DNA of 64,000 nucleotides from NCBI GenBank assembly GCA_951406725.2, contig OX597816.1, positions 139,500,001 to 139,564,000 of the forward strand, read 5' to 3'. Made by a program: the position numbers and the translations under genes. The notes under the pieces were generated by a model. That model had not been told where the DNA came from and ran no database searches. It was given only the letters and a program-made list of their open reading frames with translations. Of this stretch, positions 1-38,951 are shown in pieces; the stretch's first letter is position 1; each line of letters starts with the position of its first letter. Source of the DNA: Octopus vulgaris. Its lineage: Eukaryota.

Positions 1-1115
1 CTACCAAAGAGGAATGTCTCTGTCCTCATGCCTTTCAGCCTCGTCCACCAGACAACCTTTCACCACAGCCACCTAGCAAAGGCAAACTGTCTTACCTGCC
101 CGATTAAAGGAAGATGGTGGGGTAGTCATCACTATGGACCCGGCTGATAGGCGTAACCATCCCACACGCGACAGCATCTGTTCGACATACCCCCCACAAG
201 TCAGCAAAGCCCGGACACTGAACGAATGCGTGCAGAACGGTTTCGTTGTTCCGCAGGTACCTCGTAGAAACATGTCTGATAGCACATCCACACCCGTAAA
301 ATTTATCGCACACCAGTAGCGCCTCCACCCCACCCCGACAGCAATTGCCAGGCCAAGGCCAAGGGCATCTGGAAATTGTCAAACGGAAAAGTCCTCCGAA
401 ACACACTATCCAGTTCGTTTTCATCGACACCCAGATTCTCGTACTTACCCGCCACTAATTTTCTCTATATTATAAAAGTGTGTCAACCACCGATGCAATT
501 GCTCAACTCGTAAAAGAGTGTGAGCGCCTGACGACATTTTAGGTACCCGGCGTCCAGTCTCGGTCTTTCCTCCGCCCAGAACTGCAGCTTCCTCAAGGAG
601 AGAGAACTGTAGAAAGATGTGCTTCACAAACGGAACGCACACACGTTCACCTCTCAGAAATCGTTGCAGATGGTGCAACCTGAGCGCGTGGCTGCGCATC
701 AGGAGCCAGAGCATGCGTAAGCCGCTACGCATAGTTTGCTGGCAGCAGACTGAACCCCTGACCATTGAAACTAGGACAGGACACGATGTTCAGACAATAA
801 ACGATGTAAGCATTCACTACCTCACTACCGATCTTTTAAGGACAGCTTATTTTCTACCCATTTCTGAGCAAAGACTGGCCACCCTGTTTGTCACCTCATC
901 CCAATTCTTATCCACCCGAACTGACTCAACTAGACCGAAGCGGTTAGCTGCTTCGTCAGTCCAGCGGCATCAACCTTCCTCTCCAAGAGCCCAGCCACAA
1001 GCCCACTGACTTCGCGTCGATTTTGGCCCTTGCAACCAACTCGTATTGCTTTAAAGTAGTGCCGACCATGTATACTTCCAGACTTTGTTTTATTGTACAC
1101 CGTGGTTGAGTCCAT
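1..1115 (-). mobile_element. Degraded Tx1/L1-clade LINE ORF2 C-terminal half (end of RT, GGLG-like region, CCHC zinc knuckle)
   Basis: Frameshifted minus-strand peptides KSVGLWLGSWRGR, DKNWDEVTNRVASL, RSGLRMLWLLMRSHALRLHHLQRFL and RYLRNNETVLHAFVQCP (ETxxHxxxxC zf-RVT motif); homologous to the piece at 53053-53203. Confidence 0.8.
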
Positions 1116-7137: not shown

Positions 7138-7699
7138 TGTGTGTCTGTATGTGTGTATACATATATGTATATATAAATGTATGTATGTATGTATGTATGT
7201 ATGTATGTATGTATTATGAGAGAAAGAAAATGGAATTCACGAGACCCTTTATTATTCACTATGATCGTTTCGATCCATCATGCATCGGTGTCTCGTCGGT
7301 GAGATACTGTATAAACAGTATACTACGAGGTGTATACCCAAATTTTAAGATATATATATATATACATGTATATATGCAGTAGTGGCCACGATATACCGGT
7401 TCGTAATAACAAGTGTATTGAAATAGTTATTATTAAGATTAACAACACGTGGAAACTAGATATTATACACATATTTAGATGTATCTAATATCGATCTTTC
7501 GTGAAAATTTCAAGTGAATGGAATAAATATTTCGTAAGTAATGAGAAAATAAACAAACAATCCTCCAAGTTGCAGTTGCCAAAAGTTAAGGGTCACTTAG
7601 AAAAAATGAACTACTAACCGAGGTATATGTTGTTTAGAAGTCTGTTAATGGGCTAACATCTATTTCTTATGATCTTACATTATTGGAACATTCAACTGT

Positions 7700-8640
7700 C
7701 AACATGGCGGCTTGTGAGATACAACCGGTGTCCTGTGATTGAAAAGAAAGGATTGTGTGCTTTCACCAAGAGGGCAAGTCAAATTCTATGATAGCAACGA
7801 CTGTAGGAGAGTCTTGACGTGTTGTGCAACGAATTGTAACTCGTTTTAAGTCATCAGGATCGACAGATGCTAAACCCCAAACCGGTAGACCTCGTAAAAC
7901 TTCACCAAGACAGGATCGTATTATGGTTAGAATGTCACTGAAGGATAGGTTTAAGAGTGCTGCTGAGATATCCCGTGTGTTTAGCTCCGCTTCCGATGTC
8001 AACGTTTCACGCAAAATAGTTTCTCGAAGGTTACGAGGTTTTGGGTCATCAAAGAAACCTCTAATCTCAAAGAAGAATCAAAGAGCCCGTCTTCGTTTCG
8101 CTCACGATCATGTCGTTTGGACAGAAGATCAGTGGTCGCAGGTTCATTTTAGCGATGTTATTGAAGTTTAATGTGATTGGCTCCGATGGCGTAATGTATC
8201 TCCAACGAAGAAGTGATGAAAGGTTATCTTGTGCATGTATGAAGAAGACAGGGAAATATGGAAGAGGCAGTGTAATGGTATGGGGAGTGATCTCTGCTGC
8301 TGGTCCTGGTCCACTTATTCGCCTACAAGGGACTGTCAATGCTGAAATCTACAAGCAGATTCTTAGACAGCATGCCCTTCCACATCTCCAATCTTCGTCA
8401 GTTCAACCTCCTATGAGAGTCAAAGATTTTTTGAGTGATGATAGGGTTGATTTCATGGACTAGCCACCTTAAAGTCCCGATCTCAACCCTCTGGAAGATT
8501 ATTGGAGATGGGGTGCGAAGAACAAATTCAAAGAACCATGATGAACTCCGGGAATTATTGAAAAACGAATGGAATAATATTACTCCGTCATTTTGCAAGA
8601 AATTAATAAGAGCTCTTCGAGATAAAGTAAACTAGTACTA
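7700..8640 (+). mobile_element. Degenerate Tc1-family transposase (pseudogene)
   Basis: GRPRKTSPRQDR HTH linker, KKPLIS..RLRFA..W..VHFSD, GRGSVMVWGVISAAGPGPL, SPDLNP; broken by frameshifts and stops; TIRs not found. Confidence 0.9.
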
Positions 8641-29052: not shown

Positions 29053-30329
29053 ATGTAATAATAACAAAAGCAATGTTCGAAGGAAATAACCATTTTTCAT
29101 ACTTTATAGAGGTAAGCAAATAGGAAATAACAGTTACTACTCAAGGACAAAAATCATGTTACACAGCGTTATTGCTAATGCGTAACTGCATCATCGTCCC
29201 ATAGTTGAATTTAAATCAGTCCTCATCCAGTAGATATTTGACCAAAGGCGTTCCAACCGTAGCCATCTTATCTCAAGTTTAGAAATAATGTATTTAGGAC
29301 TACATTATTAATTATTTCCTTCTATTTTTAAGACGATAGGACTTACTATTCGTTGAATTAATGTAGAAATGGCTGTGTATGTCATAGGATCGTTCAGTCT
29401 TAACCTGCTTTTCATGGCGTGTGATACATTGTATGACAAGACAGGACCTTTAAATCACACATACAATCAACCAGGCGAGCTTCCACACAGTTTCCATTTA
29501 CACACTACCATTTGAAATTCTTGTGTTAACCCAACAGTAATGATAAAAGACATGTGCCACGCAATGCGATCGAACATTTCATTCTATTTTTAAGAGGATG
29601 GGACTTGATTCGAGACGTGTTTTCCTCAAACCAGGTAGCGGTAGATCTATATTCTATATGTACGAACATATACACACTATCACTGTCTCTAGCACATATT
29701 TATACGCGTACACACAAACATGTACACACACACACAGACCGGTGTGTGTTTTTGTTGAGTGGGTGGATGTGTATATATGTAAGCATATATTTATGTATGT
29801 GTATATAATTACGTATGGAGTACTGCCAGTTTCATAACGTTATGCAATAGCTTTTCGCCAGTACCGTCATTTCGTATTTTATGTACGACCGAAAACGAGG
29901 TTGATATATGAGTGGTTGGAAGTTATCTCTCCCTTCACTAGTTTTGAGGTATCTGGTATATTTTATGTCAAAGTATGGAGGCCGCCTTGTGTAGTGAATA
30001 AGTGTACTACTTTCGAATACAACAAAGATACTCAGGTATACACTCGCATACATAAGGATTTATGTGGATATCAGTATTTTTTACTCTGCATATTTTTGCT
30101 AATTACTATGATATGGCATTGTATTGGTTGTAAATAATATTGTCGTAAATTATACGGTCTCGGCTATTGTTATCATAATGGTACTTATATAAATTGTATT
30201 GTGATCAACCGTATCAGTTTGTATATAATTCTTTTGTCATACAAAACTATCCTCATAAATTGTATCGAAATAAATAGTATCTTTGTAATTTTTCTGGTTT
30301 TATTTTTCCTTGTTTTTTTGGGGTTTTTT

Positions 30330-30524
30330 TTTCAGTCATTAAACTGCGGCCATGCTGGCGCACAGTCTTGAAGAATTTAATTCGACCAAATCGACTCTAG
30401 TACTTTCTTTTCTAAGCCCAGTGCTATCGGTCGCTTTTGCTGAACCGATAGGCTACGAGCTCGTAACCACACCAACATCGGTTTCCAAGCGGTGGTAGGG
30501 AAAAATACAGACACATAAACACAT

Positions 30525-30592
<68 letters not shown>

Positions 30593-31198
30593 TTTATCTT
30601 TTTTTTACGTATTTCAGGCATTAAGTTGCGGCCATGCGGAGATACCGGCCTGAAGAATTTATAGTCGAATGATTCGACCTAAGCACTTTCTTTTTAGTTA
30701 AGCTTGGTACTTGTTCTCTTTTGCCGAACCGTTGAGTTACTGGGACATAAAAATACCAACGCCAGTTGTCAAGCGGTGGTGGAGGACAAAAGCAAACACA
30801 CACACGCACACATATATAAATGTATGTATATACACGAGTAAGTACATGAATGCAAACAAAGTGGAAAAAAATAGTACACGAATACCGACGAACGAGAAAG
30901 TGAAACTTTAATAAAAAGGTATATATATATATATATTGTTGTTTGTTCCTTCTCGAGCCACGTCTGGCTCATAGGGTCGATTTCCCGGTTTCCTTGGCGG
31001 TCCGTCGCAGGTGAGCTGCAAGATGCAGGAGGAAAGAGTGAGAGAAAGAGTCAGCAGAAGTTCGGCATTACTTTCTGCCGGAGCCGCGTGGAGCTTAGGC
31101 GTTTCGCTCATAAACACACACATAGCCCGGTCTGGGATTCGAACCCGCGATCCCTCGATCGCGAGTCAGCTGGTCTAACCCCTAGGCCATGTGCCTCC

Positions 31199-31230
<32 letters not shown>

Positions 31231-31465
31231 TTCTCGCTCTCACTCTTTCTCTCTCTCTCTCTCTCTCTCTATGTATATATATATACACACACACACACAC
31301 ATACATATATGACGGATTTCTTCCATTTTCTGTCTACGAAATTCTCTCACAAGGCTCTCGTTGGACCGAGGTTAGAGACCCAAGGTGCCACGTAGTAGAT
31401 AGAACTAAACATAGAGCCACGTTGTTGGGAAGCAAACTAATTCCCACAGACCCGGCCTGTGCCTA
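30330..31465 (-). mobile_element. SINE cluster (family B tails, family C copy at 30945-31198, family B head)
   Basis: Matches other copies in the window. Confidence 0.75.
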
Positions 31466-31953
31466 AGTATATTTTTGATAAATCGTTTTGTCATAAGTAA
31501 ATAGTGGGTCCACATCGATTTCACCGATAGGCGTTGAGTTTTTTTTTTTCTTACTTAACTGAACTAACAACTCGTTGAATTAATGTAGAAATGGCTGTAT
31601 ATACCATAAACTCGTTCAATCTTAACCTAATTTTCATGGGGTGTGACTCATAGTGTAATAAGACAGTTCCTTTAAATTACAAATAAAGCCTATCCGTTAG
31701 ATTCTACACAGTTTCCATCTACATACTGCCATTTGTAATTCTTGTGTTAATCCAACAGTAATGATAAAAGACATATGCCACGCAATGTGACCGAACATGG
31801 GATCTCATGATTATGGATCAAACTTCTCAACTATTAGACCAGGTTTCGTCTATATTGTCATATATATTTTCTTTATTTATTTTACGTCTTGCGGTTATTG
31901 GACAGCGGTAGTCATTCGGTGGTAGGGGTCAAATACAAAGATACTCACAAATG

Positions 31954-31999
<46 letters not shown>

Positions 32000-32152
32000 C
32001 GTAAGGGGTATTAGCCATTGGGGTGGGGTGGGGTGTTACTGATGCTTTTAGCCCCAGGCGATCAACGTCACCAGAAGGACTTTAGACACTATCTCAGTGC
32101 CCTTGTGTTATTTGCAAAGGGAGGTCATCCTCCCTCGAAGACCCGAGTACTA

Positions 32153-32197
32153 CATACGGACTATAGTTTCAAGGTAATTGCCTCTCGTCAACGCATG
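32153..32197 (-). ncRNA. Minimal type I hammerhead ribozyme (left arm)
   Basis: Exact reverse complement of 32388-32432. Confidence 0.7.
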
Positions 32198-32387
32198 GTA
32201 AGCACCGGTCTTCGATGAAGGAGTCCCCTTGCAAATAATATATAACGTTTTTCACAGTAACCACTGTCACTGATGTAGAAAAACTGTCTGAAAACAATAA
32301 TAAATCTCTGAACGAGATATAAACAGTAACAGTAAAACGTTATATATTATTTGCAAGGGGACTCCTTCATCGAAGACCGGTGCTTAC

Positions 32388-32432
32388 CATGCGTTGACGA
32401 GAGGCAATTACCTTGAAACTATAGTCCGTATG
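32388..32432 (+). ncRNA. Minimal type I hammerhead ribozyme (right arm)
   Basis: Stem I CATGCG / core TTGACGA / stem II GAGG-caatta-CCTT / GAAA / C-TATA-G / TC^ / stem I' CGTATG; predicted cleavage after C32426. Confidence 0.7.
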
Positions 32433-32647
32433 TAGTACTCGGGTCTTCAAGGGAGGATGACCTCCCTTTGCAAATAACACAAGGGCACTGAGATAGTGTC
32501 TAAAGTCCTTCCGGTGACGTTGATCGCCTGGGGCTAAAAGCATCAGTAACACCCCACCCCACCCCAGTGGCTAGCCACATTCAGGTGGCTAATACCCCTT
32601 ACGTTGTCGAGCGGTTACTGTTTATATCTCTTCAGAGATTTATTATT

Positions 32648-32707
<60 letters not shown>

Positions 32708-32746
32708 AGAGAGACATACACTCACACACTCACACACACACACACA

Positions 32747-32907
32747 CGGCGAGTTCCTTTCAGTTTCCATCTATCAAACGCATTCACAAGGCATTGATCT
32801 GCTCGGGGCTGTAGTAAAATATTCTTGCCCAGAGTGCTACGTAATAGGACTGAACCTAAAACTACATAGTTGAGGAGAATGCTTCTAACCACACAACCAC
32901 GCCTATA
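32747..32907 (-). mobile_element. SINE family B (degraded)
   Basis: Family B motifs. Confidence 0.7.
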
Positions 32908-33154
32908 GGTTTGTGACTGTGATGGATCTTCTTGATATAAATACATATTTTGTAAAGAGCTTTGTCCATAAGGACTATTTGCATAAATCATATTGTGATA
33001 ATTAAGATTGTCAAAAGCTCGAAACTTCACACGTCTAACTCCACTAAGCAAATAAATTTGCTGACAACGGCAAATTCTCAAAGATCCTGCTGTCAGAGAC
33101 TACCATAATAGTAGTAGTAATAGCAACAGCAACAGCAAGAGCAGCAGTAGCAGC

Positions 33155-33365
33155 GCATGAGCTGGGTGAATTGGGAGCACGCCGGGCAAAATGCTTAACA
33201 GCATTTCGCTCTTCATTACGTTCTGTGTTCAAATTCTGCCGGAAGTTAACTTTGCCTTTCATTCGTTTCGGGGTCGATAAAATAAGAACTACTTGATCAT
33301 CTGCATCGATGTAATCGACTTGCCCACTCCTCCGAAATTGCTAGCCTTGTGCCAAAATTTAAAAT
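33155..33365 (+). mobile_element. SINE family A
   Basis: Family motifs. Confidence 0.8.
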
Positions 33366-33377
33366 TATTATTATTAT

Positions 33378-34442
33378 TGAGTGAGAGAGCAGTGCATGCC
33401 ATCAAAGTGACACTTCGTAAAATATACGAAGCCCAGTTTATCCATCATGACTACTCGTCCGATAAGAGTATACCAGGCACATGCATTACAACCATATGTG
33501 CGCGACATGGTGATCTCATATCAAGATTAATGACATATTACGTTGCAGGTGGGGCCCAGTTAGAATTTTCTTCAGGTCAAATAGCCAATCCTACTCAAAT
33601 AGTCCTTGAATAAGGGTTGTTTAAGGATGTTGAAAAAAGACCCATACTTCCAGACGTGAATTATTCAAACTCCAAAGAGTTCCTCTTAACACATGGGTAT
33701 GATGCCACCACTACTATCTCTGCTTCTGATCAGAGATGCACATTTCGTCAGCCACCAAAGGACATGCTCAACTGGTTACGGTCAAACAACTGACAAGCAA
33801 ATCTGTGGTATTGAGTAGAGTGTTAGGGGTCGATGTAACTGCCTATCCCTCTCTTCCAAATTTCAGGCCTTGTGCCGATATTAGAAAGGACTATTATTAT
33901 TATTATTCGTTCTTTTATGCCATTAAAGTGACACTGGGGTGAAATATACGAAGCCCAGTATACCCATCATGACTACCCGTCTGAGAAGGGTACACCAGAG
34001 ATATGCATCACAACCATATGTGTGCGACATTGGGATCTCATATCAAGAAAAACAGCACATGACCTTGCAGGTGGGGGCCCAGTTAGAATTTTCTTCAGTT
34101 CGAGTATCCCATCCCGCTCAAAATATCCTTGAATAACGGTTGTTTAAGGATGTTGAACAAAACACTCGTGTTTCCAAAGGTGAATTATCCAAACCCCAAA
34201 GAATTCCTCTCAACACATGGCTATGATGCACATCCACTACTTCTGCTCGTGATCAGAGATGCACATATCATCAACCACTAAGGGACATGCTCAAGCAACT
34301 GACAAGCAAATCTGTGGTATTGAGCAGAATATTTGCTGTAGCCCATCTTTTAAACCAAGACAAAACAATGTACATGATAACACTTCCAATCCGTTAAGAT
34401 CAGAAGCCATGGAAGCCAATGCCTGGTAATGCATCAGGGCAT
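33378..34442 (+). repeat. Two tandem copies of interspersed repeat family D (~450-530 bp, class uncertain)
   Basis: 33378-33820 and 33918-34442 are homologous (AATATACGAAGCCCAG..GGGGCCCAGTTAGAATTTTCTTCAG..GCAAATCTGTGGTATTGAG); further copies at 47592-47870 and 28885-29052; usually next to ATT repeats. Confidence 0.85.
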
Positions 34443-34505
34443 TTATTATTATTATTATTGTTATTATTATTATTGTTGTTGTTGTTGTTGTTGTTGTCAG
34501 TAGTT

Positions 34506-34720
34506 AAGGCGGCGAGTCGGCAGAATAGTTAGCACGTTGCACGAAATGTTTAGCGGTATTACGCCCGTCGCTACGTTGTGAGTTCAAATTCCGTCGTGAC
34601 TTTGCTTTCCATCCTTTCGGAGTCGATAATTTAAGTACCAGTGAATCACTTGGGTCGATGTAACCGACTAGTTTCCTCCCCTCCAGAAAATCAGGACTTG
34701 TGCCTTTAGAAGAAAGGATT
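34506..34720 (+). mobile_element. SINE family A
   Basis: Family motifs. Confidence 0.8.
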
Positions 34721-34741
34721 ATTATTATCAGCAGCAGCAGC

Positions 34742-34808
<67 letters not shown>

Positions 34809-35147
34809 AAATAATTAAGCGAAGAAAAGCAAAAATGATGATGACGACGACGATGAGGAGGAGACCAGGAAGATTTTAAGGAAGGGGCGGACAACGACGG
34901 CGACAAAGACCACCACCACCACCACAACAACAATAATGACATCGAAGGGCTCGATGGAAGACTCTGATATCATAGTAGTGACAATAAATAGTTTCAGGAA
35001 ACGATGACACGATATGCTGACACGAAATGAAGAAGAAATCAGACCACAATAGTCAAGTAAAAGAAAAGAAAGCAAAAAAAAAAAAAAAAATTTACAGTAA
35101 GTTAAATTAGAACGTTTGAAATGTTGACCTCAATCTGTGAAGAGAGG

Positions 35148-36989: not shown

Positions 36990-38949
36990 CGGGAGTGCTA
37001 AAGTAGTAGTAGGGTGTTAAATGGTCAAGTGCCCCGAAAGTGACTTGTGGATGGTAGTAGTGATTGAATTCTCGAGATATCTCTTTTGAATGTATTGTTT
37101 ATAATATTTGCGTAGGTGTTATTCTAAACAGCAGTAGGAAGGAAGTGGCAGAGAGGAAGAAGACGAAGAAGGAGACAGAATGATAAGAGAATGCAGGATG
37201 GTAGGATAGTAGTAGGATGTTAAATTGTCAAGTGAGCTAAAAGAGATCCGTTGTGGAGTATAACAGTGATTGGGGCTGTTTTTAATGAATTCTTGGGTAT
37301 CTCTTTTGAATGTGCCATTCTTAATATTTGCGTGTGTGTTTATTCTCAGGTCGTGGCGGATATATCATTTGTTGTGGATGCGTTCAAAAGGGGTTTGTAT
37401 TTTGTAATAAAGAGGGGCTCTTTACTAATTCGTTGGCTACAGGTTGTATCATCTCTGAATTGATAGAGGGGAAAAATTCTGAAGCTTGGATTTTTGTTAT
37501 TGGCGCAAATGTAGATGTGTTGGCTGAATGCTATTTTTCTGGGGGTTTTTTTGAATTTTGATCTGGGATCTGTGCAAAACCATCCTTTACGTAGACTGTT
37601 TTTTGTTTGGCCTAAGTATTGTTCTTGACATCCAGAGTAGGTTAGTGTGTATATCAGGTTCTCCGAAGCACATGTGAAGCTGCTTTTCACTGTGAAACGT
37701 TGTCCCTGTTTGAAGGAGAACACTGATCCCTCACTTAAATCGACACATATCTCACAGTCTTCCACGTTTTTTTACTGACGGTTTTAGTGCTGTTGTTGAG
37801 CGTATTCGGGCTTGTGTTAGGAGACTTTCCATAGATTTGGGCTGTCTCTTGCTTTTTATCATGGTGTGTGGATTAAGTTCATTCTGTGGGCCTTTCTTAG
37901 CAGGGGAATGTTTTGAAGGATGGTGTCGAAGGCTTCGTTGTTAAGAGGGTTGTGTGTAGAGATATATGGTAGGGATTTTGGTTGTAAATCCTTCTTTAAT
38001 TTAGGATGTCTGAGTCCGTGGATGTTGAGTTGTAGAGCAAGTTGAAAGCCTATGTCAATTAGTGAAGGTGGGTAGTTCCTGATGATGAGTGTATCATTTA
38101 GTTCATGTAGTCGTGTGTCCCTGGTGCTTGCATTAGAAACTATAGTACATATCCTTTTTGCTTGGTTGAAGGGAATATTCATTCTGGTGTGTCTGGGATG
38201 GCATGAGTTGAACGGTAGATATTGCTTGGAGTTCGTGGGCTTATATCATATATCTGTCTCTATTACGTTGTTAGATTTCTTAAATAGGATGTCAAGGAAG
38301 GGAAGTTGTTGATGGCTATATTCCATCGGGAATTGAATGTTTACGTCAAGTCCATTTATAAGTACTTGAATTTTTTAAAGTTTCTCTATACTTTCATGCC
38401 AAAGAATGAAACTGTCATCCATGTATCTCTTCCAGTGATTTTTCTATGTAGAGAGAGAATGGGCTGCCGTATTTTTCTAGAACCATACGATAAAGACTAA
38501 TTTCTAGATATCTCATGACTAGGTTGGCAAAAGAGGGGGCCATTCCCGTACCCATTGCAGTCCCCGATTTTTGTCGATAGAAGTTGTCTTTGAAGACGAA
38601 GTAGTTATTCTCCAAGATAAATTTTAACCCTTCTATCACGAATTCTCTTTTGATACGATGTGGGAGTTCGTTGTCGTAATTCTCTAACCAGAATTGAATT
38701 GCCTCTATGTCTAGGTTGTGGGGGATATTGGAATAGAGGTTGACTACATCGAAGGATACAAATAGGGTGGTTTTGTTTATTGTTTCAGGAAGGTGATTGA
38801 GCATATCCAGGTCGTCCCTTATGTAGCTTTTGACATGCTTGAGGAATGGTTTTAAGAGGGTATCTAAAAAGTTACTGAGGCGGTGGGTTTCGCATGCGGG
38901 ACTTGCTATTATAGGTCTCAATTTGAGGTCATTAGGAGGAGAGACTTTC

Positions 38950-38951
<2 letters not shown>
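36990..38951 (-). mobile_element. Penelope-like element (RT + GIY-YIG endonuclease), 5'-truncated and frameshifted
   Basis: LRPIIAS, SFDVVNLYSNIP, YRQKSGTAMGT.MAPSFANL, LPFLDI, CEIC linker, FTCASENLIYTL..CQEQYLGQT (GIY-YIG); ~200-bp tandem duplication in the 3' region (37005-37330). Confidence 0.92.

Follow-up and report, generated by a model that had tools for sequence, protein, structure and literature searches.

A 355-nt hammerhead-bearing repeat family of Octopus vulgaris and its two-armed insertions

Non-LTR retrozymes of metazoans are an element class that is already known, with sizes of 350-390 bp in mussel and about 330-350 nt in axolotl (PMC7229834; Li, Clavereau and Pollet 2026, 10.64898/2026.07.22.740005). 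Their movement by Penelope-like elements (PLEs) through RNA circles was earlier proposed from co-occurrence and terminal-repeat similarity. For PLEs themselves, the one-sided tail of genomic copies has been described (PMC8557442, PMC3846280), and in PMC11167929 a PLE protein with a predicted dimeric form cleaves both strands, extends both, and begins copying at two internal sites, the interval between which is the tail. Our literature search did not turn up retrozymes from an octopus-like animal.

We analyzed a 64,000-nt stretch of the Octopus vulgaris genome (contig OX597816.1, positions 139,500,001 to 139,564,000; hereafter, the window) and compared the repeat that it contains with these systems. 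Like metazoan retrozymes (Cervera and de la Pena 2020, PMC7229834), the repeat has a non-coding tandem unit of 355 nt, a GC content of <45%, and one type I hammerhead per unit; target duplications of >4 bp and co-occurrence with PLEs are common to both, and the short palindromic helix III is as in the dimer-dependent forms of amphibian retrozymes. Unlike metazoan retrozymes, it carries U3·G8 and G10.1·U11.1 in place of C3-G8 and G-C, and it occurs as short dispersed two-armed insertions. Circles, cleavage, and expression have been demonstrated for the coral, mussel, and axolotl retrozymes, whereas this family is known from genome sequence. Like EN+ PLEs (Craig et al. 2021, PMC8557442; Arkhipova et al. 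2013, PMC3846280; Frangieh et al. 2024, PMC11167929), the family has 5' truncation, partial tandems, an inverted 5'-truncated copy, a tail at one end, AT or (TA)n targets, target duplications (about 8-10 bp in PLEs), a hammerhead in the repeat, and two start sites. Unlike EN+ PLEs, it has no ORF, and its tail is 46 nt rather than 30-40; its terminal repeats also have no sequence match to those of the autonomous PLE families sampled in the genome.

The hammerhead and the insertion in the window

A sequence-only reading of the window had proposed a type I hammerhead at the coordinates given in Table 1, and all of its coordinates hold when the sequence is read again. The core boxes (positions 3-9, GAAA, and NUH) are linked by three helices: a 6-bp stem I (CATGCG/CGTATG), a 4-bp stem II (GAGG/CCTT) with a loop of 6 nt, and a 2-bp stem III (A-U/C-G) with the palindrome ACUAUAGU. 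The core reads UUGACGA, with U at position 3 as had been claimed, and is followed by the GAAA box; a GUC places the predicted cut after C32426. The G10.1·U11.1 pair, also a wobble, had been overlooked. The motif had also been labelled minimal, but in the terms used by PMC4209133, a 6-bp helix I, a 4-bp helix II, and a short palindromic helix III make up the canonical metazoan type I form, which is expected to act as a dimer. A hammerhead descriptor matched this site and the left-arm copy (Table 1), nothing else in the window, and nothing in 300 shuffled windows. An Rfam scan of 30000-35000 gave no hammerhead match down to E 10.

Stem I extends as described, with TTATTTGCAA beginning at 32347 and TTGCAAATAA finishing at 32477. 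A 151-nt rod folds at -55.3 kcal/mol (z -5.5), which none of 200 shuffles equalled, and the long rod folds in five of five family representatives whose arm sequences differ (z -5.2 to -6.4, single folds). RNAalifold applied to eight rods recovered the inner rod and helix II and missed the outer arms, which the single folds recovered.

Table 1. Features of the two-armed insertion and its hammerheads, in window coordinates
Feature	Position	Strand	Basis or remark
(TA)n target, left flank	31964-31998		sequence
Left arm	31999-32330	-	unit positions 318 to 355, then 1 to 309; outer (3') end at S1
Type I hammerhead, left-arm copy	32153-32197	-	sequence identity, descriptor match
Head-to-head junction of both 5' ends	32331-32333		3 extra bases inside a short duplicated 6-mer
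Right arm	32334-32650	+	unit positions 42 to 355; outer (3') end at S2
Extended stem I rod, 131 nt, hammerhead-capped	32347-32477	+	folding
Type I hammerhead	32388-32432	+	palindromic helix III; wobbles at U3·G8 and G10.1·U11.1; cleavage predicted after 32426
Short hairpin 14 nt upstream of S1 (S1 = 32605)	32572-32591	+	folding, sequence
Tail between S1 and S2	32606-32650	+	this end only; second small hairpin inside; 46 nt in the family unit
(TA)n target, right flank	32651-32704		sequence

The hammerhead had been described as present on both strands. The two copies are indeed identical, but the source of the minus-strand copy is an inverted repeat (240 nt, 99%), and the antisense strand of the unit has no hammerhead core; the second copy belongs to the inverted arm of one insertion and there is no antisense ribozyme. 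The insertion spans 31999-32650 inside a (TA)n run. Of the unit, 347 positions are represented in its left arm, which ends at unit position 309 (S1), and 315 in its right arm, which ends at 355 (S2). At 32012-32030, the left arm is without the 18-nt hairpin that adjoins S1, a loss that occurred between two 6-nt direct repeats and that may reflect a slip early in cDNA synthesis. Because each strand carries only one hammerhead, the locus cannot form a cis dimer, and it is probably not a working source. A read-through transcript of the locus would be expected to pair both arms into long double-stranded RNA. Elsewhere in the window, two sets of paired dispersed repeats that are 80-90% identical (29341-29577 with 31563-31798, and 33417-33824 with 33939-34333) are probably short interspersed elements.

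The repeat family and its wobble core

We defined the unit from tandem copies as 355 nt with 44% GC. Our search of the genome (2.8 Gb, 227 contigs) returned at least 125 matches from the 40 candidates scored of 2475, many of them at 94-97%, and the exact 33-nt ribozyme stretch had at least 223 matches, compared to none for the control; the family consists of several hundred scattered copies of a protein-free repeat. Units are tandemly arrayed elsewhere in the genome, reaching 3.5 units among the loci examined, so the arrangement that characterizes non-LTR retrozymes (low-GC tandem units of ~150-450 bp, each with a type I hammerhead) occurs there and not as tandem hammerheads at the window locus. 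Unit ends are tandem or TA-flanked, with no LTR and presumably no PBS or PPT. Sister families have units of 354-360 nt with about 70-77% identity. The circular fold of the unit only mildly beats shuffles (z -2.4). The copy number, tandem arrays, and stem covariation that the sequence-only reading had proposed to look for were all found in the genome search and, with the mostly palindromic helix III and the PLE-type insertions described below, bear out its suggestion of a retrozyme/pLTR-type family. On the features that can be tested in sequence, the family is a metazoan non-LTR retrozyme, apparently mobilised in the manner of PLEs.

Contigs from four runs that we guessed to be RNA cover parts of the unit, thinly and without shared starts or ends, although such contigs cannot show strand, ends, or circles. 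An RNA-editing footprint was considered and rejected, given that locus-private A>G changes (25) are not in excess of T>C changes (29) in the ribozyme sense. Several copies have unusual structures. At L022 640-1110 (-), the unit is scrambled and interrupted by numerous short insertions that are copies of other stretches of it, and L042 3072-3119 and L233 1549-1643 are ~50-nt hammerhead-only pieces fused near the predicted cut to the 3' end of another PLE family, the same sequence as in L083; these fusions are possibly template switches between two RNAs. At L056 (about 7300-7700), a short element whose ends may be Helitron-like bears ~63 nt of the start-site region of family C.

Comparison of sister families indicates that the hammerhead is real, as both its stems and its 3-8 pair covary. 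In an alignment of 11 rows (10 distinct) from six groups, 95% of 142 cells are paired, and two-sided changes occur in 9 of the 15 pairs of the hammerhead helices across the 10 distinct rows. None of 500 shuffles matched the covariation score; because the rows are related, we treat this count as support rather than as a probability. The 3-8 pair is C-G in five rows, U-A in four, and U-G in one. It is Watson-Crick in sister families D and E (C3-G8) and C (U3-A8) and a wobble in the family of the window. Helix III varies among families; it is palindromic in A, C, D, E, and the L080 motif and near-palindromic in one further subfamily, with a wobble in one E row and one C row. The L080 motif (11-64 (+)) is another short hammerhead repeat, with a U3-A8 core and a different flank, and probably represents a further retrozyme family.

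Pattern matches in the loop-GGCA group carry U at position 3 in 416 cases, compared to 7 with C, 4 with G, and 4 with A. We built a tree of 50 rows with the core left out (7 of 57 chosen loci yielded no usable row), in which U3·G8 appears in two places: the group of the window, and a subfamily that is sister to D beyond a branch of 0.35 with support of 100/100. Because the root of the tree is not fixed, we claim no direction of core change. Conservation of the core within the family (0.6% vs 3.5%) is biased by the selection of copies by pattern and was set aside. Changes at the 3-8 pair are shared with published core variants: U3-A8 cores have been reported (Perreault et al. 2011, PMC3088659; PMC4209133), and the core of family C is of this kind, while a natural U3/G8 core is cited as a variant from salterns (PMC7151607). 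The saltern core also has an insertion; unlike it, the U3·G8 pair here is uncompensated, stands without an insertion, and predominates in an expansion of several subfamilies (416 vs 7).

Our literature search found no measured cleavage rate for a plain U3·G8 core. Given that the active core has a Watson-Crick C3-G8 pair (PMC3884650, PMC8495972), the wobble would be expected to slow cleavage, and we think that the ribozyme probably still cleaves at a useful rate. The strongest competing explanation is that it is a dead passenger, in which U3·G8 and G10.1·U11.1 stop cleavage and copying proceeds from uncut multimeric array transcripts, with no circle. This is consistent with the absence of any inner end at the ribozyme cut site (0 of 104 arms), with the Watson-Crick C3-G8 pair of the active core (PMC3884650, PMC3088659), and with the report in PMC11167929 that ribozyme mutants left PLE insertion unimpaired in vitro. 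We nevertheless regard it as unlikely. The U3·G8 core is found on well-supported branches in different parts of the tree, among them the subfamily sister to the C3-G8 family D; the helix III loop and helix I of that subfamily differ and yet their pairing is kept; and the saltern example is a natural one.

Insertion anatomy, shared haplotypes, and a candidate enzyme

We mapped 103 insertions at 99 loci, which had been selected either for the best BLAST scores or for an exact pattern match on the first chromosomes; loci that overlapped, and repeats within L043 and L044, were removed beforehand. Head-to-head arms were present in 52 of the 103, and tail-to-tail arms in none. There are two fixed 3' ends, S1 and S2, which lie 46 nt apart in the unit. 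When both ends of a two-armed insertion could be classified, one was S1 and the other S2 in 39 of 42 cases (p 6e-9 vs 50%), with like ends in the other 3; an end elsewhere was seen in 10 of the 52. Two of these loci, L030 and L208, resemble one duplicated insertion, and counting them once gives 38 mixed of 41. One-armed copies finish at S1 or S2 in 46 of 51 cases. Sister families C and D have mixed ends at 11 of 16 and 15 of 15 two-armed loci, respectively, and like ends at none. TA runs flank 29 of the 52 two-armed insertions, and target duplications of 9-16 nt are present at 10 of 23 non-TA two-armed loci, compared to 7 of 506 mismatched flank pairs. Pieces cross the ribozyme cut site in 124 of 165 cases, and 43 of 104 arms are longer than one unit. 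Overall, the insertions bear the footprint of PLEs, with 5' truncation, an inverted upstream copy, a tail at one end, an AT-rich target, and target duplication.

Alternatively, the inverted arm could result if one cDNA folded back and primed itself, or if an antisense template were copied, as proposed for rotifer Penelope, where head-to-head repeats with junction palindromes are taken as self-priming (PMC3846280). We examined 34 simple mixed-end loci, setting 5 complex ones aside. One arm could sit inside the other at 23 of these, as fold-back would allow, but at the remaining 11, including the window locus, neither arm is contained in the other, which contradicts fold-back there. In addition, only 2 of the 34 loci have inner ends no more than 20 nt apart, and the outer ends of both arms are fixed, directly adjoining the target or its duplication; fold-back is therefore improbable. 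Junctions overlap by 1-14 nt at 19 of the 34 loci.

The arms of a locus share haplotypes. At segregating sites, the arm-versus-arm difference was 2.3% and 4.2%, compared to 10.3% and 22.5% for pairs permuted within subfamily. Subfamilies were mixed between arms at none of 44 clearly assigned loci, and common-allele differences were 0.40% within loci and 3.31% between loci. We relied on segregating sites because the median divergence from the nearest other locus (1.1%) is lower than that between arms (2.2%), so that plain identity is no proof of a common template. The 51 within-locus differences at common family alleles are clustered in L227, L235, and L244, which hints that some templates were mixed. 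Sharing of haplotypes between arms would also be expected if two RNAs came from a single donor locus.

A GIY-YIG search identified an abundant element with a 781-aa RT plus GIY-YIG frame, TA targets, two 3' ends that lie 38 nt apart (16 and 9 ends), and a U3-A8 hammerhead-like motif of its own. A cysteine motif precedes its nuclease, as in Neptune-type clades (PMC8557442), a likeness by motif rather than by tree. This 781-aa family is young, and its copies (L155 768-4468 (+), L152 2245-4587 (+)) have a separate upstream frame of ~479 aa with no clear Pfam match. A PLE of the 781-aa type would be a plausible partner in kind; its 38-nt tail differs from the 46 nt of the retrozyme. Among the 50 GIY-YIG loci compared (of 6136 first-look candidates), no terminal sequence matched between the retrozyme and an autonomous PLE, and the terminal repeat of the 781-aa element gave no match, nor did those of other families read by eye. 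Cross-mobilisation between PLE types was not observed in a rotifer, according to PMC3846280. Retrozyme-like sequences beside PLE loci L160, L165, and L171 were considered as shared termini and rejected as separate insertions that are neighbours by chance. Same-strand retrozyme pairs 1.4-13 kb apart were likewise rejected as an autonomous element: no PLE ORF lies between them, and they are local duplications or flank LINE-type ORFs. The window also contains a broken RT/GIY-YIG Penelope-like fragment (37379-38951 (-)), which starts at a (TA)n run, has 51-76% amino-acid identity to the 781-aa family, and lies ~5 kb from the retrozyme with no shared terminus seen.

The pieces could also be detached pLTRs of 5'-truncated autonomous Penelope copies rather than an independent non-autonomous family, in keeping with ends and targets that are the same as those of PLEs and with the location of such hammerheads in pLTRs (PMC4209133). 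We consider this very improbable, given that copies continue upstream of the hammerhead into another unit and not into an ORF, that arrays of 354-360-nt units exist, and that no RT/EN frame is joined to the unit in any of the loci scanned. A further idea, that a viroid-like ambisense RNA with a ribozyme in each polarity was copied into the genome, has almost nothing to recommend it: hammerheads can be read on both strands of the locus and the unit is fairly self-paired (64%), but the two motifs are one sequence within an inverted repeat, the lack of a core on the antisense strand of the unit refutes the idea as stated, and the family bears retrotransposon insertion marks.

Proposed mechanism and significance

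We are fairly confident that the window locus holds a 355-nt non-coding retrozyme inserted as two arms, likely written in trans by a PLE reverse transcriptase with a GIY-YIG endonuclease. A tandem array would be transcribed, and its hammerheads would pair through the palindromic helix III and then cut slowly, with the U3·G8 core, into units that may be circularised. The enzyme would cut AT-rich DNA with a stagger of about 9-16 nt, after which each DNA 3' end would prime cDNA on one hammerhead-sense RNA, at S1 and at S2, respectively, 46 nt apart. Both cDNAs would run through the ribozyme site, and their ends would then be joined, often at microhomologies of 1-7 nt. The outward-facing 3' ends of both arms are as expected if the 3' end of each strand primes on ribozyme-sense RNA. 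Because arms can be longer than the unit, the template must be a circle or an uncut multimer; we rate the circle slightly above even odds and the multimer slightly below.

The use of one site per arm, together with shared haplotypes, suggests that both primings occur on one RNA in one complex. As a more specific and more tentative version of this mechanism, to which we give somewhat less than an even chance, a dimeric PLE-type enzyme would hold both ends of the staggered cut while two reverse transcriptases start on one small circular RNA at hairpin-marked sites 46 nt apart. The tail and the inverted arm would then be products of a single twin-priming event, in a lineage that has spread with an uncompensated U3·G8 core. 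Several published results count against the proposed mechanism as a whole: PMC11167929 reports no strand difference in start site in vitro and no effect of ribozyme mutants on insertion, and dimers of frog retrozymes cleaved in one of nine cases (Li et al. 2026). In our own data, the loci with like ends, those with an end elsewhere, the few that look mixed, the modest circular fold, and the lack of a matching PLE terminus among the loci compared weigh in the same direction. We did not find the two-strand, two-site reading in a literature search that covered papers outside subscription.

The family supplies countable insertion footprints, in the form of one arm per start site, shared haplotypes, and duplicated targets, and these tie the two start sites of the PLE enzyme in vitro to the one-sided tail in genomes. 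Its wobble core, alongside sisters with C3-G8 and U3-A8, constitutes a ready series for asking how much cleavage the element needs. If the twin-priming and U3·G8 reading is true, the family would be a natural test of the need for self-cleavage and circles in retrozyme mobility.
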